Below, one piece after another: positions 37,144-53,323 of a stretch of DNA of 64,000 bases; the first letter of the stretch is position 1, and each line of letters begins with the position of its first letter. Source of the stretch: an uncultured Planctomycetales bacterium (GTDB lineage: Bacteria > Omnitrophota > Gorgyraeia > Zapsychrales > JANLHA01); NCBI GenBank assembly GCA_964450385.1, contig CAYVEC010000002.1, positions 65,262-129,261 of the forward strand, read 5' to 3'. Position numbers and translations under genes: made by a program. A model generated the notes under the pieces. It worked only from the letters and a program-made list of their open reading frames with translations, was not told the DNA's origin and did not search any database.

Positions 37144-37533
37144 ATGAACACAAAACCACGAGAATACCGACGGATCAACGAGAACGGAACGATTTATTAT
37201 GGAAAGCATCTCATTGTCACCGCGCGCGGATGCAATGAGAGCCTCTTAGACAAGGCTGCGATCGCCAAGTTCATGACCACCCTCGTCAAACGGATCGACA
37301 TGGTCGCCTTTGGCGATCCGATCGTCGAGCGTTTCGGCGGCGGCGTGGAAGTCGGTATCTCGGCCGTCCAATTAATCGAAACCAGCGCCATCGTCATCCA
37401 TACCAACGACCAGGCACGCGACATGTACCTCGATGTCTTCAGCTGCAAAACCTTCTCGGAGGACGCGGCTATCGAGTTCGTGAAAGAAAACTTCAGTCCA
37501 ACCTCCATCAACCACCAGGTGCTCATGAGATGA
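37144..37533 (+). CDS. S-adenosylmethionine decarboxylase proenzyme-like (SpeH/AdoMetDC small form)
   Basis: VQLIETSAIVIHTNDQ...DVFSCKTF matches the AdoMetDC (L)IAESHISIHTWPE...DVFTCG core, including the processing-Ser context ETS. Confidence 0.6.
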   Translation: MNTKPREYRRINENGTIYYGKHLIVTARGCNESLLDKAAIAKFMTTLVKRIDMVAFGDPIVERFGGGVEVGISAVQLIETSAIVIHTNDQARDMYLDVFSCKTFSEDAAIEFVKENFSPTSINHQVLMR

Positions 37534-37994
37534 ACAGATTCTATCCCAAATTCGTTCCAGAATTTCCGTACGAGCCGTCTCCGGAAAAATTCAAGATCGG
37601 CAGGATCAGTAAAGCCGTCGGTTCCGGCGTCATTTCAAAGGCAGCGTTCAAAAAGGGTGAGATCGTTTTCGGTTTTACAGGTTTCACGATCGACTTCATC
37701 ACCCAGTTCTCATTGCAGTACGGCAAGAACATGAACATCCATGATCCGTTCTTCATGGGCAAGGTCCTCCATTCATGCGACCCGAACACATCGTGTGATA
37801 TGCAGCGCCGGATCTTCATTGCCCGGCGGGATATCCATCCCGGAGAGCTCGTCACCATGGACTATGAACAGACCGAGGACGTGCTCTTTAAGCCCTTCCT
37901 CTGCCAGTGCGGAGCGGGCAACTGCCGAAAGATCATCCAGGGCAAGGCGATGGTCGCCGATGCCATGCGTAAATCTATGCGTAAGGTCGCCTGA
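37530..37994 (+). CDS. SET-domain protein lysine methyltransferase (small bacterial/viral-type SET)
   Basis: LHSCDPN (NHSCxPN), ELVTMDYE (catalytic Tyr) and post-SET CQCGAGNCR. The ATGA start overlaps the upstream gene. Confidence 0.75.
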   Translation: MNRFYPKFVPEFPYEPSPEKFKIGRISKAVGSGVISKAAFKKGEIVFGFTGFTIDFITQFSLQYGKNMNIHDPFFMGKVLHSCDPNTSCDMQRRIFIARRDIHPGELVTMDYEQTEDVLFKPFLCQCGAGNCRKIIQGKAMVADAMRKSMRKVA

Positions 37995-38051: not shown

Positions 38052-39389
38052 TTATGCGATACCAAGACGCCGAAAAAAACGCCGGCGACGCGACCGGGAT
38101 GGATTAAAATACCCGCACAGGGTCGCTGGAAACTCGCGGTGAACCATCCGAATGTGCTCGGCCAGTCCCAAAGGCAGCCTCCGGCCGGATTCAAAGCCGA
38201 TAGCCCGGAGATAGCCGAGGGGATCAAAATTCATGTTGCGCCATTGAATCATGTCAACAGATCCTGTCCGAAGCAGCCGGCGAAGGGCGCGGGTCTCACC
38301 AGCGGAATCCGTGACCCCCGGGGCCACAAGATAATTGATCGAGACAAATCCCCTGCAGCGCTTGGCTATCCGAATCGAGGCCATCACATCCGCAAAAGAA
38401 TATCCTTTCGGACGGTAATAGCGCTCATAATACTCTGGCTGAAGACTATTGAGACTCACCCGCACACTGTCCAACCCGGCCTCAAAGAGTGCGCGGATCG
38501 CCTCGGGCCGGCTCGCGTTCGTATTGAGATTGATCACCCCGCGCCGGGTCGCCCGGCGGATCAGCCGAACAGACTCGATCAGAATATCAGCGACGTTCAA
38601 GGGTTCGCCCTCACACCCCTGACCAAAACTTACTACCGGATCCCGGGTAGCCCGGATATGCGTAAGCGCGGTCTCGGCCACCTCTTCGGGTGTCGGTACA
38701 AAGGCGATCCGAGGCTGAGTCACCGGGCACTCTCCATCGGGTTGATACGAAATGCAGCCGACGCAGCGGGCATTACACGTCGGCGATGTCGGGAGCGGGG
38801 CCTCGTATCTTTTTAGAAAAAAATTCCTGGCCGCCGGGCAGCCGTTGACACAGGCGCAGGTCTCAAGATGGCGCATGAGACGATTTTCGGGAAATCGTTT
38901 CTGGTACTCGCGGATGGTTTGTTTCATGAGATCGAGGTCCATCAGCCGGGGATCCTGCCTGAGCTCCCGGTCCACCCGGATCGCGGCAGCATAAAATTCA
39001 CCGCGGAAAAACGCCACGGCCCCATAGGCAAACATCGGCAGCAGGCGGGCGCTCGGACGCTCCTCAAACGCGGCATGATAGCTGGCAGTATACCCCGGGG
39101 CCAAAAAAGCAGCAACCGGATAGACCGGGCCGCTGATCCCCTCCAGGGGGCTCGTGTCGATCCGGCACAACCGCCGGTTCTCCAAATCACAGGCGATCGC
39201 TAACCGGTCCGGGAGCATATAGAGCGCACTGCACGCCGGAAGCCTGACGCAGTCCTCTCGCGTCAAGGGGACATACTGACCCCCGGCCATCCCCACGGCC
39301 TGTAAAAAAGGCACATTAACGATCCGGCCCTGGCCGTCGCTCACAACGAGTTGTGGATATTGTTCTGCCATCAGGTCCCCTAAAGACAA
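38052..39389 (-). CDS. Radical SAM enzyme with ~200-aa N-terminal extension of unknown function
   Basis: CNARCVGC (CxxxCxxC). No C-terminal SPASM cysteine cluster was seen. Confidence 0.7.
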   Translation of the reverse strand: MSLGDLMAEQYPQLVVSDGQGRIVNVPFLQAVGMAGGQYVPLTREDCVRLPACSALYMLPDRLAIACDLENRRLCRIDTSPLEGISGPVYPVAAFLAPGYTASYHAAFEERPSARLLPMFAYGAVAFFRGEFYAAAIRVDRELRQDPRLMDLDLMKQTIREYQKRFPENRLMRHLETCACVNGCPAARNFFLKRYEAPLPTSPTCNARCVGCISYQPDGECPVTQPRIAFVPTPEEVAETALTHIRATRDPVVSFGQGCEGEPLNVADILIESVRLIRRATRRGVINLNTNASRPEAIRALFEAGLDSVRVSLNSLQPEYYERYYRPKGYSFADVMASIRIAKRCRGFVSINYLVAPGVTDSAGETRALRRLLRTGSVDMIQWRNMNFDPLGYLRAIGFESGRRLPLGLAEHIRMVHREFPATLCGYFNPSRSRRRRFFRRLGIA

Positions 39390-39438
39390 CGGCAGCTGCG
39401 CTAGGCGCAGCTGCCGCGACTGACCCCATAAATCCCGA

Positions 39439-39522
39439 CTACTTCTTCTTGCTTCCGCAGCAGCAGCAACTCGTTTTTGCTGCCTTCTTCACCGGCTTCT
39501 TCGCCGCTTTTTTTGTAACCAT
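39439..39522 (-). CDS. Unannotated 27-aa Lys-rich peptide ending in four consecutive Cys (MVTKKAAKKPVKKAAKTSCCCCGSKKK), 49 nt upstream of the radical SAM gene
   Basis: Hand translation of the minus strand. SD-like AAGGGGG lies ~5 nt before the ATG. Co-oriented with the radical SAM gene and directly upstream of it. Confidence 0.35.
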   Translation of the reverse strand: MVTKKAAKKPVKKAAKTSCCCCGSKKK

Positions 39523-39614: not shown

Positions 39615-40046
39615 CTACTTCGCTTTAATGATCTTGATCCTCGTATACCCTCGTTCGGCGAGCAGCGCCGATGTTGTTTTCAAAGAGGCATTCATCATCC
39701 ACGGCTTGACCTCCATCAGTTTGACAAGGGTCTTTCGCCCATGCTCATCAAAAAAAGAAATATACGTCCCCGAGACCGGACGATCACTGAAGGCCCCCTG
39801 ATACAACGCGTCATTTTTCGGTCCCCAGGCGCAATCATCATGCGCGAAACGCCATTCCTCCGTCAGATTCTTCTTTCTTCCGTCGAGGAGCGCCTCACAG
39901 GCATCTCGATCATGGGTCAGTGTGATCATCACCAAAAAATTCTTCCTGGGAGATTTATAGATCGTCGTGGCATACCAGTTCGCGGCCAACGCGGCGTCAC
40001 ACAACCCAAGAAGCCCAACACACACGAGACAAAAAATTCGGCGCAT
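39615..40046 (-). CDS. Hypothetical secreted protein (signal peptide; two Cys pairs)
   Basis: N-terminal LLGLCDAALA signal. No known motif. Confidence 0.4.
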   Translation of the reverse strand: MRRIFCLVCVGLLGLCDAALAANWYATTIYKSPRKNFLVMITLTHDRDACEALLDGRKKNLTEEWRFAHDDCAWGPKNDALYQGAFSDRPVSGTYISFFDEHGRKTLVKLMEVKPWMMNASLKTTSALLAERGYTRIKIIKAK

Positions 40047-40128: not shown

Positions 40129-43100
40129 TCATTTCGTCTTCCCCTCGGCCAGGACGCCCCCGAACCCGTCAAAGGGAACGACCCTGATGATCACGGGGGC
40201 CAGCCCGGTCAGCGGGCGCGACAACGAGTCCTTCCAATTCATAAGATCGATCGCCTGCCCTTCCGTTTCGTCGATAGCGACATCGGTCATGTCAAAGTCA
40301 ATCCCGCCGACGTCTCGTGCCTGAGACGCGTCGGCTCGGGCCGATCGGTCAACCGGGGCCGGATCACCAAAAAAATATCTCTGAACGTCTTCATAGAGCA
40401 TTGTCTTAAGAACTATCTCATCAAAGGCACGCCAGACTTGGCGGGTATCCGTGCCCGTATGATTCTGTGACAACCACAATGAAACGTCTTTGAGCCAACG
40501 TTGATACTGAACAGGCCTTGCGACAAGATGAAAGGCATTCAACAGGCCAAGCACCTGATCCATGTCTCCCACCTCAAGATTGCTCGATGCATCAGCAGGG
40601 TTTTTCTTGCTCACAAGATCCTGTGAATCAATGGTGCGTATCTCTCCTCGGGCGGTTATGATAAGATTCGACAGCCGCAGATTTTGATGGGCAAACCCGT
40701 AGCGCCCCTCAGCATAGCGCAGGCGTTTAATAAATTCTCCCAACGCCATGACAGCCCCTGGCTCACCCAAACCGGCCACATCACCAAGCCCCCTGATTCC
40801 CTTCTCCCGATCGACAAGAAAATGGGGACTCAGCCGATAATCCGCTCCAAGGGATTCACGGTTTTTCAGCTGCGAAAAAAGACTCATCACCAGAGGGTCA
40901 TCCGAGATGTCGTTAAAAAATTCATCCAGTCGGTCCCCAGGCCGACCCTCTGCGCTCGATAGACCGTGTCCCATGACCACAAAGACGCGCTCAGGCTCGC
41001 GATCCTGGCCATCAAAAAATAATACAGCCGTAAAAATAGAGTCAAATAAGTTCTCTACTCTTCCGGTAACAAAAAGTCTTCGGCCGTCCGGATACTCCAA
41101 GACCGGGGTCTCGCCATTCATCAGGCCGCGACGCAGGGCCTCCTCTATATCCCCACCGGTCCACTCATATCTCATCGGATTTCTCGGCACACCGTCAGAC
41201 GAAAAAAACTCGCCCTCTTCCCGGGCCTCAATCTCGATCAACGACGGCGTCGCCCCCGCCATCATCTGATCAAGAAGGCTGTCCCCCTTGCGCCGCTGCC
41301 ATCGCACGCCCGTCCCGAACTGCGGATCCCATTCAAACCCTGAGCCCGTCACGCCAAACGTCCGACTATCAATGCCCGCGCGACGAAAGATCTGGTGAAT
41401 CTGGCCCTGAGGCCACGCGGCCGACTGAAAATAATCGGTCGTCCCTATATAAAAACCGGCCTCATCATCGATCATATCAAGGACATCGCGCACATCCATC
41501 AGCGCCTCAGGTAAACGGGTCGAATCAAACACGACATTGTCAAAACGATGCGAGATCCCCAGGTGACTAAAGGCCAGATCGGCCTTGTCCGTTCCCATCT
41601 CACGTAAAACCGCCTTAAGATTCACGACAAAGGACTCCTTGTCGTCCCAAATAAAAAACACATTCGATTCAGTCGTCCGAATCCATTCCGGGAAGAAATC
41701 CCTGCTATATCCCACAAAAAACAGATTCCTCACCCCCTGCCGCCGATAATGTTCTCCGAGCTCCTTCAGCCCTATCCCGGCCCCGCACCCCAAATCAACA
41801 ATGACAATCGGGTCCGCCTCGTCAACCCTCTTTTGAATCCGCTCATCGATCAACGCCCGAACAGGAATAATACGCTCAATGTCCTCAAGCCGCGTATGCG
41901 TTTCCTGCCATTCCGTCGTATCCTCATGCCTAAAAACGACACCCCCCGTATGATCCCGCTCAATGGTCATAACCCCGTCCGGACGGAGATCCTCTCCGGT
42001 GATCGGTACGGTTGTAAACAGCTTACTTCCGTTGACCTCTATTCGTTGAGGCTCAGTGAGCATCGCCTGATCTGCCACCGTTAAATTGAGCCGATATTCA
42101 TTCGCGAGATATCCGTCCAGAACAACCTCCTCAAAAGCATCCCAGTAGTCCGCAAGGGTCCCGGTCCTCCCCTGACGCGCGACCCACTCGCGCATCTCAT
42201 CCTTCCAGGACTCCGGGACCGGATCAGTCAGCATCTCCTGATCGCCGAGAATGTCGATGAGCGATCCAAAATCGCTCATCATGTCATCGGGGTCCCAATA
42301 CTCAAAGGCATGAGATGTGACGCGGCTTCCCTGCATGAGCGCGATCTCATTCCAGTCAATAAGACGCAGTCCTCGGCGGGGATCAACCATAATATTGCGA
42401 GGAAGCAGGTCCCCATGGATAAACCCGAACCGGCGCTGGGCATCACGAAGACGGTGAATAAATTCAATTACCTGCGTTCGCATCGCACGAGATGACCCCC
42501 TCCGCTCAAGCGATTCACCAGAGGCCTGGTCGAGGATAAAATGCCGCGCCAGACGATAGTCCTCCTCGATTGTCTGAAGATTAGCCGGCGCAGCGAAAAA
42601 ATCCCGAGTCGCCGGATCGGCCTGGACGGCTTGGAAGAATTCTTTTAACCGCCTCAGGCGCGCGCCCATCCGCTGAGACGGCGCCTCCATCGCTGCAACG
42701 ATGAACTTCACCACAACGTCCTTCGGCGCCGCAGGATGTCGAGGATCCGTCAGCCGCCCCCGGAAAACTTCCGCGGCCCAAGAATTCGTGATGCCCTCAA
42801 TGATCTCGAGACGCCTGCCGTCTGGATACTTGAGCACCGGACGACGACCATTTTTTAACCCGTCCCGAAGCTGATCGCACAAAGAAACGGCATTGTGATC
42901 CCATGCCACCGGCATCGTCGGCTTAACAGTGAGCCGAACGCTGCTCAGCCCCCCTTCTAATTGTTTGAACAAAAGCGGGTCCTTGGTCACCCGAACCATC
43001 GTCACCGTCATCCCTTCCGCCTCGAACAATCGAGGGTCGACATTGTTTTGTTCGAGATGCGATAAGGGAAACAGCCATAATCCCGCGCCGTCATCAAACA

Positions 43101-44832
43101 CGTCTAAGATGTCATGCCGTATATACCCAATGACATCCTGTTGACCAGACGCCTTCCCGCGACTGCTAAAAAGATGGGTGATGCCCAAGTGGCTAAATCC
43201 CAAGCTGACCTTTTCTGCCCCGATCACGTCAAGAATCCGACGGAGTAAAATATTGAAATGCTCCTTCTGATCCCAGATCAAAAAGACATTCGGCCGCGTC
43301 CCCTCACCCCACTGCCGCGGCATGTCCGCCCCATAACCAATAAAAAAAAGATTCTTCCGATCCTCATATCGCGCGGCGAGCTCCTTCAGGGTCCGGCCGC
43401 TGCCGCATCCCCAGTCAAGAATCACGATCGGCTTTTCAGGTTCAGAAGAGGCCTCACGATCAGCGATGAGGGCGTCAATCTTACGCGTAATATCCAAATG
43501 ACCATCAACCGCCGCGAGTGACGAATTCATGACCGGCCATGGAGACTCCTCGCTAGTCTCCAAGTACGGCTCGGAACCAACGCCGTCCCGCAGACTGACA
43601 AACCCGTGATTGCGCCACAATGCCGCCAAGAACTGATCGCTCAGTTCCGTTCGGGTCGTATAGATCGTCTGCCCCTGAAAATCGACGTTTCTGACCTCAA
43701 CACCAGCAGCCATCCGTGTATGGGCTACTGTGCCCGAACCCTGCCCCATGGGCCGGACCATCGTATCGATCTTTACCCACCTGGCATCTGGACCGACGGC
43801 AGACCGCAGGTCGTTTTGCGTTCCATCCTCGGTGAGCATCGCCATGTCCATCGCGACCCCGCCGGAAAAATATTTGCGGGGCACCACCTCCCCGCGTTCG
43901 GCGTCATACTCCTCACGAATAAGACTGTAGACCCCCTCGCGCAACGCCTCAAGATATCCCTCATAGATCTTTGTCGTATCCTCATCATCCGTGAACTGAA
44001 CACCCGCCACCAATCCCTGATCAACATACCGCGCCCCGAGGATCCCCTGACGGAGATGCCGTTTATACCAGGCCGCCAGAATCAAGGCGTGATAGATCTG
44101 TCTCAGTCGGCGAAAACGCGGGCCCTCATTCACCTCGTGCTCAAGCGCCGGGACAAGGACGTCGCGCAAGACCGTCCCTCTCCCTGAGTGATCCGCAGAC
44201 ACGCCTTCTGATCCCGGCTTCGTCTTCCCACGATACTCTCCATCCATCATGACGCGGAGCCGGGCCCGGGTCACAAAGACCCGCGGCCCGTCGACATAGA
44301 CCTGCGCCTCGGCGGGAACGATCCAGACCTTGGGGGTCACTTGATCGGCGCCCTGTTCTGCTGCGAGCCCAGCCTGCCCGAGCGCCGTCCAAAAACGGCG
44401 GCCGGTCTCCTCCTCCGGGTGAAGCAGGGAGGCGCTCACGTGTTTGAGCACATAATCCTCCGCGAGCATGTCCCGCCCCATCTCTGTATCGCCAAAGGCG
44501 TCCGCGATGATCCGGTCCGGCTCATCCGGAGAGAGATTGACCCACATGTCTTTTTCCGGAATGGTTAACGCGGCTAGAAAATATTTAATCAACCGCGCAG
44601 AGTCATCCGTGACCTGGGCCTCATCACCTGTGGCCTCTCCGGGATCGAGAATAAATTGAAAATGAAGGGGATTGTCCGCATCGAGTTCGATGCCGCGCAG
44701 CATCATCGGCTGAGACGCCACAGGAGATCCCGGCGCCCAAAGAGGGGCCTCAGCCCATCCGACCGAAGCGAGGACCAAGGCAAAACAAACAAAAAAAGGC
44801 AAATAAAAACGAATTTTTGTGATTTTCATCAT
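40129..44832 (-). CDS. Giant (1567 aa) signal-peptide-bearing protein with two tandem modules, each a class-I SAM-methyltransferase-like domain followed by an APH/choline-kinase-like phosphotransferase fold; the second kinase-like domain is degenerate
   Basis: Signal peptide ...SVGWAEA. MTase motif I appears twice (IVILDWGCGSGRTL at ~aa 480; IVIVDLGCGAGIGL at ~aa 1010). APH-like catalytic region IHGDLLPRNIMV...LIDWNE is present in module 1. Module 2 reads FAHQNLRLSNLII...TIDSQD. Internal repeat PVLKYPDGRRL / PVLEYPDGRRL. Confidence 0.6.
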   Translation of the reverse strand: MMKITKIRFYLPFFVCFALVLASVGWAEAPLWAPGSPVASQPMMLRGIELDADNPLHFQFILDPGEATGDEAQVTDDSARLIKYFLAALTIPEKDMWVNLSPDEPDRIIADAFGDTEMGRDMLAEDYVLKHVSASLLHPEEETGRRFWTALGQAGLAAEQGADQVTPKVWIVPAEAQVYVDGPRVFVTRARLRVMMDGEYRGKTKPGSEGVSADHSGRGTVLRDVLVPALEHEVNEGPRFRRLRQIYHALILAAWYKRHLRQGILGARYVDQGLVAGVQFTDDEDTTKIYEGYLEALREGVYSLIREEYDAERGEVVPRKYFSGGVAMDMAMLTEDGTQNDLRSAVGPDARWVKIDTMVRPMGQGSGTVAHTRMAAGVEVRNVDFQGQTIYTTRTELSDQFLAALWRNHGFVSLRDGVGSEPYLETSEESPWPVMNSSLAAVDGHLDITRKIDALIADREASSEPEKPIVILDWGCGSGRTLKELAARYEDRKNLFFIGYGADMPRQWGEGTRPNVFLIWDQKEHFNILLRRILDVIGAEKVSLGFSHLGITHLFSSRGKASGQQDVIGYIRHDILDVFDDGAGLWLFPLSHLEQNNVDPRLFEAEGMTVTMVRVTKDPLLFKQLEGGLSSVRLTVKPTMPVAWDHNAVSLCDQLRDGLKNGRRPVLKYPDGRRLEIIEGITNSWAAEVFRGRLTDPRHPAAPKDVVVKFIVAAMEAPSQRMGARLRRLKEFFQAVQADPATRDFFAAPANLQTIEEDYRLARHFILDQASGESLERRGSSRAMRTQVIEFIHRLRDAQRRFGFIHGDLLPRNIMVDPRRGLRLIDWNEIALMQGSRVTSHAFEYWDPDDMMSDFGSLIDILGDQEMLTDPVPESWKDEMREWVARQGRTGTLADYWDAFEEVVLDGYLANEYRLNLTVADQAMLTEPQRIEVNGSKLFTTVPITGEDLRPDGVMTIERDHTGGVVFRHEDTTEWQETHTRLEDIERIIPVRALIDERIQKRVDEADPIVIVDLGCGAGIGLKELGEHYRRQGVRNLFFVGYSRDFFPEWIRTTESNVFFIWDDKESFVVNLKAVLREMGTDKADLAFSHLGISHRFDNVVFDSTRLPEALMDVRDVLDMIDDEAGFYIGTTDYFQSAAWPQGQIHQIFRRAGIDSRTFGVTGSGFEWDPQFGTGVRWQRRKGDSLLDQMMAGATPSLIEIEAREEGEFFSSDGVPRNPMRYEWTGGDIEEALRRGLMNGETPVLEYPDGRRLFVTGRVENLFDSIFTAVLFFDGQDREPERVFVVMGHGLSSAEGRPGDRLDEFFNDISDDPLVMSLFSQLKNRESLGADYRLSPHFLVDREKGIRGLGDVAGLGEPGAVMALGEFIKRLRYAEGRYGFAHQNLRLSNLIITARGEIRTIDSQDLVSKKNPADASSNLEVGDMDQVLGLLNAFHLVARPVQYQRWLKDVSLWLSQNHTGTDTRQVWRAFDEIVLKTMLYEDVQRYFFGDPAPVDRSARADASQARDVGGIDFDMTDVAIDETEGQAIDLMNWKDSLSRPLTGLAPVIIRVVPFDGFGGVLAEGKTK

Positions 44833-44907
44833 AATTCTTTCAATATTTATATAAGTATTAAGGATAATAATTGAAAAAACAAGGTCCTGTCATACTTTTT
44901 TAAAAAG

Positions 44908-44944
44908 AAAACGCCTTTTTCTAAAAATCAGAAAAAGGCGTTTC
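44908..44944 (-). terminator. Rho-independent terminator, perfect 11-bp stem (AACGCCTTTTT / AAAAAGGCGTT) with flanking A/T runs, between the dodecin gene and the giant gene
   Basis: Inverted repeat read directly in the sequence, followed by A/T tracts on both strands. Confidence 0.6.
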
Positions 44945-44978: not shown

Positions 44979-45170
44979 TCACATCTCAACCGCGACCTTC
45001 AGCTTCACCTGAAATTCCTTAACAAGCCCCTCCCTCACCGCGCCGCGCTGCTCGACCACCTCAAAAAAATGCACCCGCCGGCCATCTGCCACGAGTTTCT
45101 CGATCGCGGACTGGACCGCCTTTGAAAACCCCACAGATGAGATCCCCACAACCTCAAGCATCTGCAACAT
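44979..45170 (-). CDS. Dodecin-family flavin-binding protein
   Basis: 63 aa. VVGISSVGFSKAVQSAIEK...HFFEVVEQRGAV...FQVKLKVAV matches the dodecin beta-alpha-beta-beta pattern. Confidence 0.65.
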   Translation of the reverse strand: MLQMLEVVGISSVGFSKAVQSAIEKLVADGRRVHFFEVVEQRGAVREGLVKEFQVKLKVAVEM

Positions 45171-46656
45171 CCCCTAGCTCCTTTCTCTCCTGTCCTTGCC
45201 CGGCCATCCCTGACCGAAGATATTTCAAAAATTCATCAACAACGCGGGGATGAAACTGCTGCCCCCGATTCCGCCGGATCTCCTCGATCGCAGTCTCCCG
45301 CGACAGGGCCGCCCGATACGCCCGATCAGTCGTCATCGCGTCATACGCATCGGCCACGGCCAGGATCTGGGCGTACAGATTGATCCCCTCTCCGGCGAGC
45401 TGATCCGGGTATCCCGTGCCATCATAATGTTCATGGTGCCCTCGGACAATCGCAAGGAGCTCTTTGTCGAAGACCGCGGATCGAAGAATGTCCTCACCGA
45501 TGGCCGGATGCTGATGAATGAGGTCCCACTCCTCAGGGGTCAGCGTCTCTTTTTTATTCAAGACCGAATCCTGAATCGCGAGTTTCCCGATATCATGGAG
45601 CTGAGCCGCTTCCCAGATAAGTTCCACCGCGTGTTCGTCAAGCCCCATTGTCTTTGCGATCCCGGCGGCATACCCCGCGACCCGGTCCGAATGCCCACGT
45701 GTATAAATATCCTTGGCCTCTAGGATCCGGATCATGGACTGCATCGCGCGGTAAAAATAATGATGGGTCTTTTTCCGTGAGAGCCACAAGGCCCGCGCCA
45801 TCCGGTTAAAATCGCTGGCAAGGCCAGCAACCTCGTCATGCCCGGAATCGTCAACGCGGAACGTGAACTCGCCCTTACTGATCCGCCGCGTCCCCTCGGC
45901 AAGATCCTCGATCCTTCGGGTGATCCACCCCGAAAGGGCGATCCCAAGGCCAACAGCGATCGCAATCCCCGCGCCCAGGACGGCAATCCCGCGCCGATGG
46001 ACAAGGCGTCTCACCGCGTAGACATCATCCGCAGTCACATCAACTCCAAGGACCGCCACCGGTTCCCCGTGTTGATTTCGAATCGGGGCATACCCTGAAA
46101 GAAGGCTCCCCCACTCATCTGAGCCGAGACGGGTATCCGCAGTCGGACCATCAAAGGCCTTCATCATCTCAGGGAACCGCGAGGCATCATACCGGGCCCC
46201 GGGATAACATTCCTGACCCCGACGAACGTCCTGCCCGCCGCCCTCCGCGTCAGGGTCAACTACGAACTGCCAGATCCCCTGTTCCTCGGTCCGGGTCATG
46301 ATATACACAAACCGCACCGGCGGATTGGCGTCGAGGATCCGCTTGAGCTTCTGTAAGGTCGCCTGATAGGCCGGAGACTCAACCCCCTCCCGCGTCAACG
46401 GGATTTCCTCAAGCCGATCCCCATCAATGAATAAGGCCGCGGTCTGGGCGACGACCTTCAATTTATCGCGGAGCTGGTCAAACTGGGCATCAAGGGCATA
46501 AGAATAAATAAAGGCATTACTCAAGGCCACGACCGTGACCGTACTCGCGATCAAGGCCGCCGTGACCTTCCAACGGAAACTTCCGCGGGCGAGGATCCGT
46601 GCCCCAGGTCCCACCTGCCGTCGACGTCTCACGCCCTTGCTTCCCGTACCGATCAT
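45154..46656 (-). CDS. HD-GYP domain c-di-GMP phosphodiesterase with periplasmic sensor domain and HAMP
   Basis: HDIGK...HHEHYDGTGYP. Two TM segments flank a ~200-aa periplasmic domain, with HAMP before HD-GYP. Confidence 0.8.
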   Translation of the reverse strand: MIGTGSKGVRRRRQVGPGARILARGSFRWKVTAALIASTVTVVALSNAFIYSYALDAQFDQLRDKLKVVAQTAALFIDGDRLEEIPLTREGVESPAYQATLQKLKRILDANPPVRFVYIMTRTEEQGIWQFVVDPDAEGGGQDVRRGQECYPGARYDASRFPEMMKAFDGPTADTRLGSDEWGSLLSGYAPIRNQHGEPVAVLGVDVTADDVYAVRRLVHRRGIAVLGAGIAIAVGLGIALSGWITRRIEDLAEGTRRISKGEFTFRVDDSGHDEVAGLASDFNRMARALWLSRKKTHHYFYRAMQSMIRILEAKDIYTRGHSDRVAGYAAGIAKTMGLDEHAVELIWEAAQLHDIGKLAIQDSVLNKKETLTPEEWDLIHQHPAIGEDILRSAVFDKELLAIVRGHHEHYDGTGYPDQLAGEGINLYAQILAVADAYDAMTTDRAYRAALSRETAIEEIRRNRGQQFHPRVVDEFLKYLRSGMAGQGQERKELGDVADA

Positions 46657-46684
46657 CTAGCCGCCCCCGATTCTCTCCGATGAG

Positions 46685-47602
46685 CTACCGTCCCCAGAGT
46701 CCGCCGTCTTTTTTGATCAATCTCAACAAAAATTGAACAACTGTCTCATCAAACTGCGTCCCAGCCCCGCGGGTCAACTCATCCAGGATCGTCTCCTTGG
46801 AAAGGGCCGCCCGATAAAATGTGGTCGTATTCATCTCGTCAAAGGCCTCGCAGACCGCGATGATCCGTGACTCAAGCGGGATGTCCGCCCCACGCTTCCC
46901 ATCGGGATATCCTGTCCCGTCCCAACGCTCATGATGGTGGCGGATCGCCGCGCGCTCAAGATGAAGAAATTTTAACGGCCGGAGGATCTCGTCACCGAGG
47001 ATCGTATGCCGATTGATCTTCTCACGCTCCTCCGGAGAGAGGGCCCCGGACTTTTTAAGGATCTCATCATCGATAACGAGTTTCCCAAGATCGTGCAACA
47101 GGGCGGCCCGACGGATCGATTCAACAGTGTCCGCCGAGAGCCCCATCTCGTTTCCAATCAAAACAGCGAGGCGCGCGACCCGGGCCGAGTGCCCGTGAAG
47201 ATACAGCGCGCGGCGTTCAACAAGATTAATTAACGAAGCAATCGTTTCCACCTCGGCATTCTCAAGCCGCACATAGGCGCTCAATAACTCATCATTCATG
47301 GCCTGAACGCGTTCGCGCTCGCCGACCTCGCGCATCCAGAGATGGCCAATGAGGGCCAAGACGATCATCAGGATAATCTTCTCCGAGATCTCGCTCATCT
47401 CGGGCGCGGTGAAGACGATCGCGAGCTGAACGCAAACGAGAAAAAAAATTCCGCCCATCAACCACATCTTGAGGCGATTATTATATGAGACCGCTGCCTC
47501 AAGCAGTCGGCTGTGCTGATACACCCCAGGTTCCTGATCAACGTTCATGTTCTGCCCCCTCACGCAGGATGAATGAGCTTCTTCAAAAACTGTACCGCGC
47601 AC
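46685..47602 (-). CDS. HD-GYP domain protein (membrane-anchored)
   Basis: HDLGKL...HHERWDGTGYP and two N-terminal TM helices. Confidence 0.8.
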   Translation of the reverse strand: MRGTVFEEAHSSCVRGQNMNVDQEPGVYQHSRLLEAAVSYNNRLKMWLMGGIFFLVCVQLAIVFTAPEMSEISEKIILMIVLALIGHLWMREVGERERVQAMNDELLSAYVRLENAEVETIASLINLVERRALYLHGHSARVARLAVLIGNEMGLSADTVESIRRAALLHDLGKLVIDDEILKKSGALSPEEREKINRHTILGDEILRPLKFLHLERAAIRHHHERWDGTGYPDGKRGADIPLESRIIAVCEAFDEMNTTTFYRAALSKETILDELTRGAGTQFDETVVQFLLRLIKKDGGLWGR

Positions 47603-48878
47603 GAAGATAAATGTTTTTGTTTTTTTTCATTTGGGCGAACTCGGTTGTCTGCCCTTCTCCCCAGGGGACGTTCGCGCCCAGCGTCACCTTCCACCGGTCC
47701 GTCACATCATACTGAATGCTCGGCCGAAGGTATCCATCCTCATCCGACGGCGAATAAAAATGAAACACCGAGACCGCTACGGTCTGATTCTTATAAAGCT
47801 TCGTGACCCGCTGTGTCAAGAGATGCCGGCCCTGGTCATATCTGAGGTCCGAGGAAAGAAGATTGTCTTCATAGGCCCCGTAATCAAGCCGATGTTCATA
47901 AAGATACTGAACCCCCACGCGCCAATCTCCCCCGAGGTCTCGTTCATAACCAGCGAGGGTCTTCACCATGGAATTTTCGATGAGCCGGTTGTCGCCGGCA
48001 TCATCCTCGCGTGAGTTATAATAGCCCGCCTCGAGATTCCCGATCCCCCCGAAGGCCGGTCCTCTGAGGCTCCCACCATAGACATCCAACCGACGGTAAA
48101 AAAGCTCGTGCGCTGCCTCATCCTTAATGCTCGACGCGTTCTTATCAAATCCCCGAAAGGCATAGAGCGCGGCCTCATGGCTGCCGACCCCTCGATAGAG
48201 CCGAAGGGCATACTCGGCATTCGATAACTGACGGGCTGGTTCCACAAGCCGCCGGTCCGAAGCGCAGCCGGCGATCTCACCTTCAAAAAGGTCGTAAAAG
48301 GAGAGCCGGTCCCCGTCGGGCTGAAGATTCGGTTGAAAAGCGGCCGCCACGATATCCAGATTCGCGGCCTCATGAAAGAGGGAGACGCGGACCGCGTCCG
48401 ACGGCCGTTTCAGATACTCATCATCGCGCCCTGAAAAGAACGAGATATAATCCTTCGGAAAAAGGTCATTCACAAAAAGATAATCACCCGTCCCCCAAGT
48501 CAGGACCTGACGGCCCGCCCGGACATCCATCCGTTCAAGCGGGCTGAACGACAGATTGGCCTCGCGAACCTCGACGGCGGTCTTCGCGCCAAAATATCCA
48601 TCAACCGTCCCGTCCGCCTTAAGATTCACGACCGCATTCTTTTCAGCCAGAAAATTCTCACCCTCCCAAAAATACTGGGTTTTGAACTGCAGACGCTGCT
48701 CGAGAAAATGATAATCACTGTGTTTGGTATCGATCGAGTCGTCGGTTCGGACCCCGGCCGCCGTCTCGGCAAAGCCGTGAACTCCGGTCCACGCAGCGTC
48801 CGCCGGACCCGCGGCCCCGACCGCACACCCGGCAGCAAGACACAGCGAAATAACGATTTCTCTCATCATCGGATCCAT
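47583..48878 (-). CDS. Outer-membrane beta-barrel protein (DUF1302-like partner of RND exporter)
   Basis: Signal peptide. Alternating beta-strand pattern. C-terminal ...RARYSF with terminal Phe. Confidence 0.5.
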   Translation of the reverse strand: MDPMMREIVISLCLAAGCAVGAAGPADAAWTGVHGFAETAAGVRTDDSIDTKHSDYHFLEQRLQFKTQYFWEGENFLAEKNAVVNLKADGTVDGYFGAKTAVEVREANLSFSPLERMDVRAGRQVLTWGTGDYLFVNDLFPKDYISFFSGRDDEYLKRPSDAVRVSLFHEAANLDIVAAAFQPNLQPDGDRLSFYDLFEGEIAGCASDRRLVEPARQLSNAEYALRLYRGVGSHEAALYAFRGFDKNASSIKDEAAHELFYRRLDVYGGSLRGPAFGGIGNLEAGYYNSREDDAGDNRLIENSMVKTLAGYERDLGGDWRVGVQYLYEHRLDYGAYEDNLLSSDLRYDQGRHLLTQRVTKLYKNQTVAVSVFHFYSPSDEDGYLRPSIQYDVTDRWKVTLGANVPWGEGQTTEFAQMKKNKNIYLRARYSF

Positions 48879-49672
48879 TGCGCCGGCGGCGTCCTTAAAA
48901 ACCGTTCCGTAAAGATATCATCGGTCAGACCCACGTCATAGCGGATGTTGGAAAAATCCATCAGCGTATTCCCGCCGCGGACGAGGTCCGTGGCCCGCGA
49001 TTGGACGACCGTCCAGTGGCCGTCGATCTCCTGGACATCAAGGGCCTCGATCCGGCGGATCACCGCACCTTTCGCGTCATAATATTCCGCCTTAGACGGC
49101 ATGAACGTCGCCTTGTCGATCCAAACAGAATAAGAACTGAACTCCGCCTCGCGTCCGGGCTTCGGCGTATTCTTGACAACATAATGGGTCTCGGTCTCGT
49201 CAACGAGCTCATGGACATCGGCCTCAAGGCTCCGGCCCGAGACATCCTCATAGACAAAATGAGAGCCAACGAAACTCGATCGCTTATCACTCGCGGCCAC
49301 GCGTCGGACAAGATCCAGGGCCGGGAGGAACAGCCAGCGGTCATCATCGCTCGCCCCGGTCTTTTTCCAGACCATATAGACCATCCGAGCCACATCAGCC
49401 GGCTTGCGGAAATACACATAAAATTTCTGTTCCCCACCATCGGTGACATTCTTCCTCAGGATACGGAACTCACGCACGCGGCTCCGTCCCTGGCTGTCCA
49501 CGATCGTCATCGTGACGTCCGTGCTCCCGTCATTCCCCGCGTAATGCGCGACGCGGTTCGCCCGCGCCACGATCTCCTCAACCTCGAGACACCATCCCTG
49601 CCCCGCCCACCAAACCACGATCATCCCGGCGGCAGCAAGGAGCGCTCCCCAGCGACCTGTCCGTTTATCCAT
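48866..49672 (-). CDS. LolA-like outer-membrane lipoprotein-sorting-family protein (DUF1329-like)
   Basis: Signal peptide, ~268 aa, positioned between the RND exporter and the OMP. Confidence 0.45.
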   Translation of the reverse strand: MDKRTGRWGALLAAAGMIVVWWAGQGWCLEVEEIVARANRVAHYAGNDGSTDVTMTIVDSQGRSRVREFRILRKNVTDGGEQKFYVYFRKPADVARMVYMVWKKTGASDDDRWLFLPALDLVRRVAASDKRSSFVGSHFVYEDVSGRSLEADVHELVDETETHYVVKNTPKPGREAEFSSYSVWIDKATFMPSKAEYYDAKGAVIRRIEALDVQEIDGHWTVVQSRATDLVRGGNTLMDFSNIRYDVGLTDDIFTERFLRTPPAQWIR

Positions 49673-52259
49673 TCATTCCCTCCTCCGTTTTGCACCGCGT
49701 TCTCCCTGACAGCCTCCGGCATATTCCAGCAGCCGCAGCAATGATCCCGATCTCTACAAAGACAGTCGGCCGCCATCCAAGCGGCGAATATCCGATCAGG
49801 ACATACGCAACCGCGGCCGCAACAAACCCGGCCGACAGCACGCACGCCCCGCAATGGCATCCCGTGCCGCCGCGGGGGTCTTCAAAAAAGGCCTTCGGCA
49901 CAAGGGTCGCAAGGGCCGGCAGAAGAAACAGCGTCGAGAGACTCGAGACCGCCATGATCATGAACATAAAGAATCCCACCGTCTTATATGGAACGAGCGG
50001 CGCGGCCAGGAGTGGAAGGAATCCGATCGCCACGACCAGGGCATTCCGGATGATCGCGCGGCCCGGGCCCTGAAACATCTCATCCGCTGTTTTTTCCCAA
50101 CTGCCGGTCTCACGATACAGCTCAAGGGCCCGCTGAATAAAATGAATCGCAAAATCAACCGACAACCCAAGCGTCAGCGCCGAGAGCACCGCGACAGGCA
50201 TATCATAGTCTTTTCCGAAAAATCCGAGCAGGCTATAGATAAAGAGGATCGTAACCGTAAGCGGGATCATCGACAGCAAGGCCTTGAGCGGCGAACGGAA
50301 GAGATAAAGCATCATGAACAGGACAATAATGTAGGACCCGATAAAATTATTCAGCATCCCCTTCACCATATTATCCTGCCAGATCACATTAATATACGTC
50401 GAGCCCGCCCACTTATACGTGACCTGATAGGGCGGAGGATTATTGGCGATATAGTCATCAACAAACGCGAGCACCCGGACCATGTCTTTATTGTCCCCGC
50501 TCTTCAGCTGGAACCAGATGTTGGTCTTGCTGTAATCCGGGGTCGTCATGTGCCAAACATCGTCGGGCCGGTGGGAATTTTCGAATGAAATAAGGCACTG
50601 GGCCACGGCCGCCTTTGAATCAGGGATCCGCTCATCACGTGGATTCCCTCCAAGCAGCTCATAATAGACCTTCTTCACCACATCCCCCAGTGAGGTTGTC
50701 TTCCCAACGAGCCCGGTCCCGGCCAAGGCCTGCTGAAACCGTTCCAGGTATCTCAGCATCGCCGGCTCAATAAAAAGTTCTTCCTCAGAATCGCGCGACT
50801 CAAAAACCAGATACGACTCATATGTTCCGGCAAAATGACGGTTCAAGACCCGGTCCGCGACCCGGAGCGGGTGCGCGGTGTTAAACCACCGGACCGGATT
50901 GTCATTCACCTGAACGCGGCTGATCCCATAAAGCGACACCGCGACGACCATCACCGAAACGATAAGGACCGCCTTGGCCCGCCGAAGACAGACCCTCTTC
51001 ATCCAGCCGAGAATGCGATCGATCAGATGTCCGCCCGACTCTTCCGGATGCCCGAAATCCACAAAACGCCGTTCTGGGATGAGCATAATATAGGCCGGAA
51101 TAAACACCATGGTCAGGATCCAGGCGATCGCAATCCCGATCGCGACAAAAACACCAAAGACCTGGACCGGCGGGATATCAGAGAATGACAAGGAGACAAA
51201 CCCCGCGATCGAGGTCAGCGATGTATAGAGCATCGGGGTGAACAGCTCCTCAAAAACGACCCGGATCGTTTTCGGCCGGTCATTAAAGGTCCTGTATTTA
51301 TCAAAAAATTCACTCAAGATATGGACCGAATCAAGGACCGCGATCGGCATGAGGAAAATCGGGATCATCGAGCTCATGATGTGCACAGGATACCCAAAGG
51401 CCATGAGCAACCCCATGGATATCACGACCGTGACCAGGGCCACGAGCATCGGGCCAATGATCAAAACCGCAGATTTAAAAAAGATCCACATGAGCACAAA
51501 GATGACAAGACCGGCCAGAGGGGCCGAGATCGCCATCTGTTTAAACATCTCCACCCCGAACTGATCCTCGGCCACCGGGAGACCTGTGACATAATAGCGC
51601 TCCGCACCCTGTTCTCCGGCGACGATCTTTCGGATCGCCTGAGCCACGGCATAACTGAGGGTCTTTTTCTCGATCGGGACATAAACCGCGACCGCCTGGC
51701 CGTCGCTCGAGACAATGCTGTCGCGGAACATCGGGTGCGCCTCAGCCCGTTCACGCGTCTGCCGGGCCTCCTCGCGCGACTTCGGAGGCGCCGACATCAG
51801 CCATTGGAATTCCACAGTTCCGAGATCCGCCTGACGGACATCATCGCGTGTCGAAAGGGTGATGATCTCCGGGACAATAACGCCCGGGATCTTTTTGATC
51901 TCTTCGGTAATCCGATAGAGCTTCTCTAAAGTCTGGGGATTAAAGACACCGTCCGGGTCCGCGTCATTGACTACACCGAGCACGACAAAATCGTACAGAG
52001 CGAATTCGGCCCGAACCTGCCGATGCGTCACCTTCACGGGTGCCTGGTCAGAAAGCATGTTCTGAGGGTCCGTATCCACCCTGATCCGGGGGAACTGGGC
52101 GATCGAGACCACGACCGCGAACACGGCGAGGGCCATGATGTGCTTCGGATAGCGCATCGCAACATTTAGAACCTTTGTCAACATACCCTTCCTCCCCTTC
52201 GTCTCTTTATGCGAACGGCTTCCGACTCTAGCAGATAAAAGCCGTGTGTATTTTAACAA
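49665..52259 (-). CDS. RND-superfamily exporter (COG1033/MMPL/HpnN-like, 12 TM with two large periplasmic loops); the true start is probably the internal MLTKV at ~52184
   Basis: Two repeated 6-TM halves with SSD-like TM bundles, ~840 aa. Confidence 0.7.
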   Translation of the reverse strand: MLKYTRLLSARVGSRSHKETKGRKGMLTKVLNVAMRYPKHIMALAVFAVVVSIAQFPRIRVDTDPQNMLSDQAPVKVTHRQVRAEFALYDFVVLGVVNDADPDGVFNPQTLEKLYRITEEIKKIPGVIVPEIITLSTRDDVRQADLGTVEFQWLMSAPPKSREEARQTRERAEAHPMFRDSIVSSDGQAVAVYVPIEKKTLSYAVAQAIRKIVAGEQGAERYYVTGLPVAEDQFGVEMFKQMAISAPLAGLVIFVLMWIFFKSAVLIIGPMLVALVTVVISMGLLMAFGYPVHIMSSMIPIFLMPIAVLDSVHILSEFFDKYRTFNDRPKTIRVVFEELFTPMLYTSLTSIAGFVSLSFSDIPPVQVFGVFVAIGIAIAWILTMVFIPAYIMLIPERRFVDFGHPEESGGHLIDRILGWMKRVCLRRAKAVLIVSVMVVAVSLYGISRVQVNDNPVRWFNTAHPLRVADRVLNRHFAGTYESYLVFESRDSEEELFIEPAMLRYLERFQQALAGTGLVGKTTSLGDVVKKVYYELLGGNPRDERIPDSKAAVAQCLISFENSHRPDDVWHMTTPDYSKTNIWFQLKSGDNKDMVRVLAFVDDYIANNPPPYQVTYKWAGSTYINVIWQDNMVKGMLNNFIGSYIIVLFMMLYLFRSPLKALLSMIPLTVTILFIYSLLGFFGKDYDMPVAVLSALTLGLSVDFAIHFIQRALELYRETGSWEKTADEMFQGPGRAIIRNALVVAIGFLPLLAAPLVPYKTVGFFMFMIMAVSSLSTLFLLPALATLVPKAFFEDPRGGTGCHCGACVLSAGFVAAAVAYVLIGYSPLGWRPTVFVEIGIIAAAAGICRRLSGRTRCKTEEGMNG

Positions 52260-52303
52260 ATCCTATAGAGTTGTCGAAGGATAATTTCTCCCTCTCTTGG
52301 AAT

Positions 52304-52334
52304 AAAAATAAAAAAGGCGGCCGGATATCCAGCC
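52304..52334 (-). terminator. Rho-independent terminator (AAGGCGGC-loop-GCCGCCTT followed by T-run on minus strand) downstream of PEP-CTERM gene
   Basis: Inverted repeat plus TTTTTTATTTTTATT read on the minus strand. Confidence 0.55.
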
Positions 52335-52363
52335 GCCTTGAACAAACATGATTTTTTTACCTC

Positions 52364-53209
52364 TTACAAACTCCGTCTCCGCCGAGCGAACGCGCCAAGC
52401 GCCCCAGCCCCAAGGAGCACGAGGCTCATGGGTTCCGGCACTGCCTGCGGGGCCTCGGGATTCTCATCGCGGTCGATAAACCCGCCGCCGACATCCCAGC
52501 GGGCAAGCCACCCGCCAAAGGCCTCACCGTCAGGAACACTCGCGATAACCGCATCAAAACTCACCGTCCCGTCCTCCCGGATCTCGCCTTCACCGTTCAA
52601 GGTGTATTGAAGCATCTTTTCCCTGCATCCCGGATCAACGCAATAATCCGAATATACCGTATAATACCGGGTATTTAAGATACCGGTGGTCGGATTCTCA
52701 TAAAAAGTGTAATACTTTAATTCAAACTGAAGGACAAACTGCAGATGATCATTTGCGGAATCCGTTGTCCCTGCGAAATCATAATCATATGAAAAAGCGG
52801 GAAAGATCATACTGCTCGGAAAATTAAAGAACTGGGCCCGGCCATAAAAATCCACATTACCAAGAGCAGAGGTTGTAGCCCCGTCCGGCGTCTGATAAAC
52901 CGCCTCAAAGGCCGATCCGCCATTACTCAACGCCGTCCCAGTCAGCGAACTATACCCATCCGTCCTGGGCAAGGCATTATTCAGATAGACCGTGCCCTGC
53001 GGCGCCCAAGGGAACGACTCACTATGAGTACTATAATTATAGTAAGAAAGATAGCCAAACCGCCCATCCGTGTACGTCGACTGGCTGGTGCCCGGGGTTA
53101 CGCCCCATGAAAAATTAACAACACCATTCCCCGTCACCATGGCATGCGCGGGCTGAATACCGAGGACTAAAGAAACAATTAAGAAGAGAACCGCTCGTTT
53201 ATTCATCAT
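52364..53209 (-). CDS. PEP-CTERM-anchored secreted protein (exosortase substrate); start chosen at MMNKRAV
   Basis: Signal peptide. C-terminal VPEPMSLVLLGAGALGAFARRRRSL is the PEP motif plus TM plus Arg-rich tail. Confidence 0.8.
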   Translation of the reverse strand: MMNKRAVLFLIVSLVLGIQPAHAMVTGNGVVNFSWGVTPGTSQSTYTDGRFGYLSYYNYSTHSESFPWAPQGTVYLNNALPRTDGYSSLTGTALSNGGSAFEAVYQTPDGATTSALGNVDFYGRAQFFNFPSSMIFPAFSYDYDFAGTTDSANDHLQFVLQFELKYYTFYENPTTGILNTRYYTVYSDYCVDPGCREKMLQYTLNGEGEIREDGTVSFDAVIASVPDGEAFGGWLARWDVGGGFIDRDENPEAPQAVPEPMSLVLLGAGALGAFARRRRSL

Positions 53210-53263
53210 GAAGCCCTCAAGAGCATTTTTGATTTTTATATATAATATATACTTGAGGGCTAA

Positions 53264-53323
53264 AATATAGCATATGGCAGGAACGAATGTCAATGGGACA
53301 ACCCCTCCCCAACCCAGACAGAA
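53264..53323 (-). promoter_or_regulatory. Sigma70-like promoter (TTGACA-18-TATATT on minus strand) overlapped by a conserved 36-nt dyad motif shared with the other PEP-CTERM gene
   Basis: Motif tgtcaatgggacaacccctccccaacccagacagaa (plus strand 53288..53323). It is 30/36 identical to 62065..62100. Confidence 0.45.

Follow-up and report, generated by a model that had tools for sequence, protein, structure and literature searches.

The window analyzed here is a 64,000-nucleotide stretch of contig CAYVEC010000002.1 from an uncultured member of the Omnitrophota, and our subject is a single long open reading frame (ORF) on its minus strand (40129..44832) that starts with ATG and encodes 1567 aa followed by a stop codon; we call its product the target. 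The target belongs to a very large, undescribed protein family whose members carry a predicted Sec-type signal, a conserved N-terminal domain of ~290 aa (the N-domain) and a conserved C-terminal tail of ~60 aa (the C-tail), two "caps" between which variable modules are placed. In the target the modules are a duplicated methyltransferase-kinase unit whose second kinase is predicted to be dead. The identical protein (P0001) is on record in an NCBI-derived collection, and the GC content of the target gene (52–56%) matches that of its surroundings (51–58%). A first-pass annotation of this DNA had placed a 1567-aa ORF at exactly these coordinates, leaving its strand unsaid, and all of the motifs that it quoted are present in the translation.

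The conserved ends and the family they define

The target is not one of a kind, because it is part of a family of thousands: a search with the whole protein found at least 2112 proteins at E ≤ 1e-3 (8000 candidates scored). The best 119 matches cover ~20% of the target, always aa ~1–335, and align at 40–48% identity to the N-termini of proteins 860–2600 aa long (BLASTP); family members reach lengths of at least 5272 aa (P0121). The first-pass annotation had set this part of the protein aside as a ~450-aa N-terminal region with no motifs, and it in fact holds the most conserved, family-defining domain, at aa ~35–327 (43852..44730; this and all other target features are on the minus strand). The domain is homologous to that of P0002–P0120 and closes, like theirs, in PRKYFSGG. 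An alignment of 204 N-domains has about 65 positions with conservation of 93% or more, and the target keeps 63 of these 65. About 20 polar residues are nearly invariant (N99, S101, E104, R107, T116, R120, D121, D126, K130, Q131, S135, K168, D199, E233, N235, R244, Q245, K257, E307 and D310). No Pfam or NCBIfam model matches the N-domain, a 30-sequence profile of it matched no PDB sequence even at E ≤ 10, and its AlphaFold2 (AF2) model is a mixed alpha/beta structure for which no PDB fold match was found.

The family appears to be restricted to the Omnitrophota, as judged from the labelled matches and from the best 80 of at least 593 loci found among species-representative genomes (one genome per species). 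All matches with an organism label are Candidatus Omnitrophota/Omnitrophica, apart from one labelled "uncultured bacterium" only; the best 80 loci come nearly all from metagenome-assembled genomes of Omnitrophota/Omnitrophica or from a Candidatus genus, together with 14 third-party annotation (TPA) bins labelled "uncultured Planctomycetales" and one labelled "bacterium". Some genomes have several family copies among these 80 loci, and at 13 of the 80 two or three copies lie in tandem on the same strand. A viral origin was considered and rejected: a scan of 2.9 million viral contigs gave just five N-domain matches. One of these is no more than 110 bp from an end of its contig and the other four lie within ~2.2 kb of one, and all five are most likely host flanks of prophages. 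These five homologues, on IMG/VR contigs (L081–L085), include two that are far more divergent (27–30% identity); either flanking host DNA of Omnitrophota prophages or remote branches of the family could account for the group.

The second cap lies at the other end of the protein. Nearly all homologues carry GGIDLNP, then ~35 residues, then G[FL]xPVIINIxPVxNLPLLLG at the C-terminus. The corresponding tail of the target (aa ~1500–1567, 40132..40335) reads DVGGIDFD...GLAPVIIRVVPFDGFGGVL, with GGIDF at aa 1509 and PVIIRVVP at aa 1546 (GGIDF...(32 aa)...PVIIRVVPFDGFGGVL), and phmmer matched it to 23 homologue tails. GGI[DN][LFMI] is present in the last 160 aa of 51 of the 54 family ORFs that are complete in the fetched loci, and 111 of 128 occurrences of the GGI motif lie in C-tails (6.3 occurrences are expected by shuffling). 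We also asked whether the YFSGG that ends the N-domain and the GGIDL of the C-tail could be one GG-type cleavage motif, and rejected this, with just 6 of 128 GGI[DNE]x motifs at the N-domain end.

A short junction motif, D-x-A-M-[LIVMT] (DxAM below), accompanies the caps. It occurs 138 times in 120 proteins versus 6.3 times in shuffled sequences (~22-fold enriched), never inside the N-domain. The 40 aa that follow the N-domain hold 19% of its occurrences and the 40 aa that precede GGIDL hold 14%, against an expectation of 3.7% for each zone. Many family members have no strict DxAM. The target has two such motifs, both at domain junctions: DMAML (aa 329–333, 43834..43848) directly after the N-domain, four residues past RKYFSGG, and DQAML (aa 921–925, 42058..42072) exactly between modules 1 and 2. 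The first of these is followed by a linker unique to the target (aa 334–430, 43543..43833), which is without homologues and is modelled with low confidence.

At its N-terminus (MMKITKIRFYLPFFVCFALVLASVGWAEAPLW) the target has a positively charged n-region (K3, K6, R8) and a 19-residue uncharged stretch. Heuristic scoring of the N-termini of 105 scorable homologues found a strongly hydrophobic window of 12 residues in 95%, a net positive charge of the n-region in 89% and a candidate −3/−1 (small-x-small) cleavage site after the hydrophobic core in all. This site is very often x-Y-A then Q, and Q follows [YFWH]-A far more often than any other residue does. A Sec-type N-terminal signal in the target (aa 1–27, 44752..44832), as had been proposed in the first-pass annotation, is plausible by this heuristic comparison with the family. 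The cleavage point given there, after AEA, is an unlikely one because the next residue is Pro, which signal peptidase I disfavours at +1; the equivalent site in the target would be G-W-A|E after residue 27, in keeping with the x-[YFW]-A|Q seen in homologues.

What lies between the caps differs from protein to protein. A Pfam scan of six relatives found B12-binding, radical SAM and cytidylate kinase domains together; an SNF2 helicase; a Glu/Leu dehydrogenase; LysM; glycoside hydrolase family 26 (GH26) with a helix-turn-helix (HTH) domain; and UDP-glucose pyrophosphorylase (UDPGP) with NDK, and in all six the variable modules sit between the N-domain and the C-tail. Further Pfam accessions were found that we take to be GNAT, NUDIX, PRTase, PGK, PGM, FBPase, receiver, MutS, HEAT, VWA, fn3 and peptidase domains. 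One relative, P0062 (1340 aa), carries GH26 (aa 576–680) and HTH_31/HTH_3 (aa 1151–1203) between its caps, so that an extracellular-type domain stands beside a cytoplasmic-type one.

This plan can be compared with several known systems. MARTX toxins and two-partner-secretion (TPS)/CdiA proteins likewise have conserved terminal regions, interchangeable enzymatic modules and short junction motifs as possible processing sites, and, as in the case of the TPS domain, the family's N-domain directly follows the predicted signal peptide. No sequence or fold similarity to them was found, however, no cysteine protease domain, glycine-rich repeats or beta-helix were detected in the family, and among its modules are metabolic enzymes of housekeeping type, not obvious toxins. 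Assignment as a two-partner-secretion TpsA or polymorphic toxin was therefore tried and dropped: the N-domain model is mixed alpha/beta with no PDB match, and no TpsB-type transporter or immunity gene is adjacent at the 80 loci. The PEP-CTERM/exosortase, LPXTG/sortase and type IX secretion system (T9SS) C-terminal signals also resemble the family in being a short conserved C-terminal element on otherwise unrelated exported proteins of one lineage. The C-tail differs from them in lacking both a transmembrane helix and a basic cluster, and in every case it accompanies a 290-aa N-domain. A PEP-CTERM or sortase-type tail was rejected on the same grounds, since no Pfam or NCBIfam sorting domain matches the C-tail and its sequence has no hydrophobic or transmembrane helix. 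In our literature search the N-domain, the C-tail and the DxAM motif were nowhere described, with the qualification that most subscription-journal papers lie outside the coverage of that search.

The methyltransferase-kinase unit

When aa 431–960 of the target were compared with aa 961–1567 (pairwise BLASTP), residues 431–905 aligned with residues 974–1475 at 30% identity (E = 3e-57). As judged from this alignment the internal duplication claimed in the first-pass annotation is real and far beyond chance; the segment PVLKYPDGRRL at aa 665–675, for example, recurs as PVLEYPDGRRL at aa 1243–1253. Each copy consists of a class I S-adenosylmethionine (SAM) methyltransferase-like domain followed by a protein-kinase-like domain of the aminoglycoside phosphotransferase (APH) type. 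In module 1 these are methyltransferase-like domain 1 (aa ~431–640, 42913..43542), with motif I ILDWGCGSG at aa 471–479, and kinase-like domain 1 (aa ~641–915, 42088..42912), with VVVKF, HGDLLPRN (aa 806–813) and IDWNE (aa 825–829). In module 2 they are methyltransferase-like domain 2 (aa ~974–1190, 41263..41913), with motif I IVDLGCGAG at aa 1011–1019, and kinase-like domain 2 (aa ~1191–1482, 40387..41262), with RVFVV, HQNLRLSN (aa 1382–1389) and IDSQD (aa 1401–1405). The two tandem methyltransferase-like plus APH/choline-kinase (ChoK)-like modules that had been proposed are thus borne out by the repeat alignment, by profiles and, for the methyltransferase, by Foldseek; profile or structure searches had been set beforehand as a refuting test, and the profile searches returned the expected folds for both module types.

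For the kinase half, Pfam APH (PF01636) matches aa 760–829 of kinase 1 with 32.2 bits (curated cut-off 23.2). A kinase profile was built from six sequences, the two target copies and the matching regions of P0002, P0011, P0014 and P0015; five of these six match APH individually, and the profile matches CK2alpha at E = 2e-8 across the N-lobe, the catalytic loop and the DFG-equivalent. In the alignment kinase 1 and the homologues keep the beta3 Lys (in VVVKF or AIKFF), H-G-D-L-x-x-x-N and I-D-W-[DN], whereas in kinase 2 the beta3 Lys is replaced by Arg, HGD by HQN and IDW by IDS (IDSQ), with loss of the catalytic Asp. The earlier description of a canonical first core and a degenerate second one holds in each of these three substitutions. 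Kinase 1, with all of its catalytic residues, is predicted to be active, and kinase 2 is homologous but degenerate and is predicted to be a pseudokinase.

For the other half, the target methyltransferase region alone falls below the Pfam cut-offs (~22 bits versus 27), and its stand-alone relatives of ~200 aa exceed those of Methyltransf_11/25. A 20-sequence methyltransferase profile matched solved class I methyltransferases with E = 6e-7 over positions 35–165; its best matches are phosphoethanolamine N-methyltransferases (6e-7 to 6e-4), with BamL at 8e-6. Both copies keep the GxGxG of motif I, and where an acidic residue at the end of beta2 would bind the SAM ribose, the alignment has G-[FY]-[SG], with D/E 1–2 residues past the canonical position. 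Foldseek searches with the AF2 model gave top matches that are all class I methyltransferases (probability 1.0), BCDIN3D first. By these sequence and model comparisons the two halves are a class I SAM methyltransferase fold and a protein-kinase-like/APH fold. We also tried the class III/IV lanthionine synthetases (LanKC/LanL) and rejected them: the match scores 27.3 bits against an NCBIfam equivalog cut-off of 650, and the kinase segment alone aligns.

The unit as a whole is rare. An exhaustive HMMER search of 1.84 billion representatives with the methyltransferase-kinase unit gave 30 matches at E ≤ 1e-3, the target itself included, and all of the others are partial, covering the first ~130–190 methyltransferase residues or a ~50-residue kinase core. 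The separate parts recur within the family: the target-type methyltransferase, often in tandem, in P0009, P0013, P0121 and P0122, and the target-type kinase in P0002, P0011 and P0015. P0002, the best match, is a single-unit version of the target architecture.

The order methyltransferase-kinase-methyltransferase-pseudokinase is a rare fusion, for which WbdD of Escherichia coli O9a (PDB 4azs, 4azw and 4uw0) is the sole characterised analogue. WbdD is a bifunctional O-antigen chain terminator whose two activities are sequential on one substrate, and, as in the target, a class I methyltransferase lies N-terminal to a eukaryotic-like kinase within a single chain. The first-pass annotation knew of no characterised protein family with such a fusion; WbdD is one, though its kinase core alone matches the target. 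There are also differences: the target has neither the coiled-coil ruler nor an O-antigen ABC-transporter context (its neighbours are HD-GYP proteins, a dodecin, a small secreted protein and a radical SAM protein), its unit is duplicated with one kinase predicted to be dead, this unit is set between family caps behind a predicted signal peptide, and the C-terminus of the target is the family tail.

Export, destination and competing explanations

We infer Sec export for the family from the positively charged n-regions and peptidase-type sites, and also from the LysM, GH26 and fn3 modules that some members carry; LysM and GH26 argue for an extracytoplasmic destination. Since the caps are the sole constant parts, they should serve a function common to all paralogues, most likely targeting, anchoring, onward transport or processing. 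In the explanation that we prefer and consider probable, the polypeptide would be exported through Sec; the N-domain and the C-tail would be handling modules common to every paralogue, for targeting, anchoring or further transport; and the DxAM junctions would be hinges or processing/cleavage sites. The active methyltransferase-kinase unit would work on one substrate, first adding a phosphate and then methylating either that phosphate or a group next to it, at a site where ATP and SAM occur; the interior or surface of a host or prey cell is the most plausible such site.

The first-pass annotation had found the need for SAM and ATP outside the cytoplasm puzzling. The puzzle stands, but it is not peculiar to the target: it affects the whole family, with its radical SAM, NDK, SNF2 and HTH modules, and is even sharper for the radical SAM, SNF2 and HTH modules than for the target. 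There are two ways out of it, action of the modules in another cell's cytoplasm or tethering on the cytoplasmic side of the membrane, and we lean toward the first, which fits the proposed lifestyle of the phylum. The Omnitrophota are ultra-small uncultured bacteria that are thought to be predators or parasites, and the oddity for which they are best known is a set of very long multi-enzyme proteins whose location is unclear. A predatory or parasitic lifestyle has been proposed in PMC10066038 and 10.1101/2023.11.21.568195. We hold it possible, and no more than tentatively so, that the signal peptide, N-domain, DxAM motif and GGIDL...PVIINIxP tail together constitute a new phylum-wide system of cargo sorting, secretion or delivery, perhaps with proteolytic release at the junctions, that takes modules of any kind, enzymes dependent on ATP, SAM, Fe-S or DNA among them, out of the producing cell and plausibly into or onto a host or prey cell; the target would then be one effector, with the pseudokinase as a regulator or substrate binder.

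Exported-looking multi-enzyme proteins of Omnitrophota are already known, and what appears new from our sequence comparisons is the cap-defined family. Two preprints describe giant proteins in which methyltransferase, GNAT, kinases, NUDIX, PGM, radical SAM and receiver domains occur on one polypeptide (10.1101/2023.11.21.568195, West-Roberts et al. 2023; 10.64898/2026.06.07.730766). As presented there, those proteins resemble the target in phylum, in predicted N-terminal signal peptides, in internal domain repeats and in having nucleotide-dependent enzymes predicted to lie outside the cell; they differ in being at least 10,000 aa long and in having many transmembrane helices, SecA-like or C39 domains, or dockerins, whereas the target has 1567 aa and a single hydrophobic segment. 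Within the passages of 10.1101/2023.11.21.568195 and 10.64898/2026.06.07.730766 that were searched we found no mention of the shared N-terminal domain, the C-terminal tail or the DxAM motif. The Omnitrophota proteins of more ordinary size (0.8–5 kaa) described here follow a strict common plan, in which each end bears a cap, a motif marks the junctions and almost any domain can stand in the middle, and this plan turns the puzzle of cytoplasmic enzymes with signal peptides into testable questions: what the caps bind, whether the junctions are cut and where the modules go. If the caps do form a delivery system, the family amounts to a catalogue of the phylum's effectors and the caps could be put to use as a portable export tag; should the proteins instead remain inside the cell, predictions from signal peptides are systematically wrong for Omnitrophota.

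Several observations weigh against our preferred explanation. The case for export is built on heuristics applied to the N-terminal sequence; radical SAM, SNF2, HTH, receiver, NDK and the ATP- and SAM-dependent enzymes are typical cytoplasmic domains that are hard to square with Sec export; and the ~20 near-invariant polar residues suggest that the N-domain may be an enzyme, not a targeting module. Both AF2 models are mediocre (mean pLDDT 61–62), and the composite model (N-domain, module 1 and C-tail, 896 aa; pTM 0.41) is uninformative on contacts between the N-domain and the C-tail and on the methyltransferase-kinase arrangement. Because the methyltransferase-kinase unit has almost no detectable relatives, and these all partial, the substrate is left unconstrained. 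Finally, the flanking ORFs of the 80 homologous loci were clustered in search of recurrent neighbours, and the sole recurrent family is the capped family itself (119 genes); every other flanking cluster is present in at most 4 of the 80 loci and consists of housekeeping genes. From this clustering, therefore, no conserved partner, immunity gene, dedicated transporter or partner machinery stands beside family genes at the 80 loci.

Some of these difficulties would vanish if the proteins were never exported, with the hydrophobic segment an uncleaved anchor or non-functional, the enzymes tethered to the membrane but cytoplasmic, and the N-domain serving close to the membrane as a scaffold or for oligomerisation. 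In that case ATP and SAM would pose no puzzle, and the modules that need cytoplasmic cofactors or DNA (radical SAM/B12, SNF2, HTH, NDK, Glu dehydrogenase and the kinase and methyltransferase of the target) would be where they are expected. The 2026 preprint discusses such a membrane-anchored, cytoplasm-facing reading for a transmembrane-only class with similar Pfam content (10.64898/2026.06.07.730766), and the giant-gene preprint notes that glycolytic domains may have been wrongly predicted to be extracellular (10.1101/2023.11.21.568195). We nevertheless think such tethering unlikely: net-positive n-regions in 89% of homologues would put the N-terminus inside and the rest outside, all homologues have a small-x-small site after the hydrophobic core (x-Y-A|Q in many), each protein has one hydrophobic segment only, and some members have LysM, GH26 or fn3/VWA modules, which are typically extracytoplasmic. 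Near-invariant polar residues in the N-domain (~20, including S101, K130, D126, E104, E233, N235 and R244) raise another alternative, a self-processing polyprotein in which the N-domain is an enzyme, e.g., a Ser/Lys-type peptidase (S101, K130), that cuts D-x-A|M and frees the modules after export. The position of DxAM at domain junctions, with enrichment beside the N-domain and the C-tail, is in its favour, and D-x-A resembles a −3/−1 peptidase site. Yet the N-domain matches no peptidase by sequence or fold, the LexA and signal peptidase folds are unlike its predicted alpha/beta structure, and many family members lack strict DxAM, and we accordingly judge it very unlikely.

Two further alternatives concern the target more than the family. 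It could act like WbdD, its kinase phosphorylating a terminal glycan sugar and its methyltransferase methylating the phosphate to cap or terminate a surface polysaccharide, or a ChoK-like kinase and a phosphoethanolamine-N-methyltransferase-like enzyme could together make phosphocholine. The domain order is that of WbdD, WbdD chains 4azs, 4azw and 4uw0 are among the best single-sequence PDB matches for the kinase core, and the top Foldseek match, BCDIN3D, is an RNA 5′-phosphate O-methyltransferase; the phosphocholine alternative draws on the phosphoethanolamine N-methyltransferases that head the methyltransferase-profile matches (E = 6e-7 to 6e-4). The WbdD match is weak, however (E = 0.13 over ~47 residues), WbdD is absent from the methyltransferase-profile matches and from the top 50 Foldseek matches (a fold comparison weakened by the model pTM of 0.41), and all methyltransferase matches are of the generic Methyltransf_11/25 type. 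WbdD is moreover cytoplasmic and has a coiled-coil ruler, whereas the target has a predicted signal peptide and no detected coiled-coil domain, and no wzm/wzt/wbdA-type glycan genes flank it. Either route seems distinctly unlikely as a full account, and by analogy both may serve as leads for the chemistry of the unit, with WbdD the best analogue. The first-pass annotation, for its part, saw a giant exoprotein near a type II secretion system (T2SS) and at the head of a co-oriented gene string, and from this one might picture a one-off protein secreted by that T2SS and working with the downstream genes (a 143-aa protein, a Cys-rich peptide and a radical SAM enzyme). A T2SS cluster with GspD, GspE, GspF and GspK is indeed present at 7.2–19.6 kb, the downstream genes are co-oriented, and the 27-aa CCCC peptide and the same-strand radical SAM gene are real. 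We give this picture little credence. The cluster is ~20 kb off with many unrelated genes between, and no evidence ties it to the target; the target belongs to a family of thousands; and it does not appear to head a gene string, as a terminator and its own promoter-like site precede it, an AT-rich promoter-like region precedes the 143-aa gene, and the conserved-neighbourhood check proposed with that annotation found nothing beside family genes at the 80 loci except other family genes.

Genomic surroundings of the target gene

Directly upstream of the target is a gene for a 63-aa dodecin (PF07311, E = 3e-14; ~44980–45169, minus strand), which ends in an intrinsic-terminator-like hairpin with a 17-bp stem and a T run (44908..44944, minus strand). 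A promoter-like site, ATGACA-18-TATTAT, follows ~30 bp upstream of the target ATG (44864..44893, minus strand); it is a 10/12 consensus match only. Downstream, an 82-bp AT-rich, promoter-like spacer containing TTGTTATAAT separates the target from the gene for the 143-aa protein (39615–40046, minus strand), which has a signal-peptide-like N-terminus (MRRIFCLVCVGLLGLCDAALAANW) and no Pfam or NCBIfam match. This protein is a singleton in a 15-billion-protein collection. Beyond it are the 27-aa Lys-rich peptide with four consecutive Cys residues (MVTKKAAKKPVKKAAKTSCCCCGSKKK; 39438–39521, minus strand), a hairpin with a 13-bp stem (39389–39417) and a 445-aa radical SAM protein with weak MoaA/rSAM_pair_X similarity (38052–39389, minus strand). 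The Cys peptide and the radical SAM protein look like a pair of precursor peptide and maturase, and the position of the target beside them is most simply coincidental.

The T2SS-type cluster (7272–20857, minus strand) contains GspE, GspF, a GspK-like gene and two secretin genes (7272–9281 and 17952–19556), and is adjoined by a CAAX-protease/TPR fusion. All named top matches of the GspE of the window are from Omnitrophota (56–65% identity), and this places the window itself in that phylum. On the other side of the target a minus-strand stretch at 45154–53293 encodes HAMP-HD-GYP and HD-GYP proteins, a 431-aa protein without an assigned family, a LolA-like protein, an HAE3/MMPL-type RND transporter and a PEP-CTERM protein (52364–53293), the last encoded separately from the target. 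It is followed by an Orn/DAP/Arg-decarboxylase-like protein, an ATP-grasp ligase and a FemAB-type GNAT (Acetyltransf_6) in a row (53408–56967, minus strand), which could be an amino-acid or polyamine ligation cassette, and farther on by a 709-aa papain-family (C1) peptidase with a PKD domain (58753–60882, minus strand). On the plus strand, at 37144–37994, an AdoMetDC-like gene (129 aa) overlaps the gene for a SET-domain protein (154 aa) by 4 bp; AdoMetDC homologues neofunctionalised to Orn/Arg decarboxylases have been described, with mention of Omnitrophica (JBC, PMC10407285).

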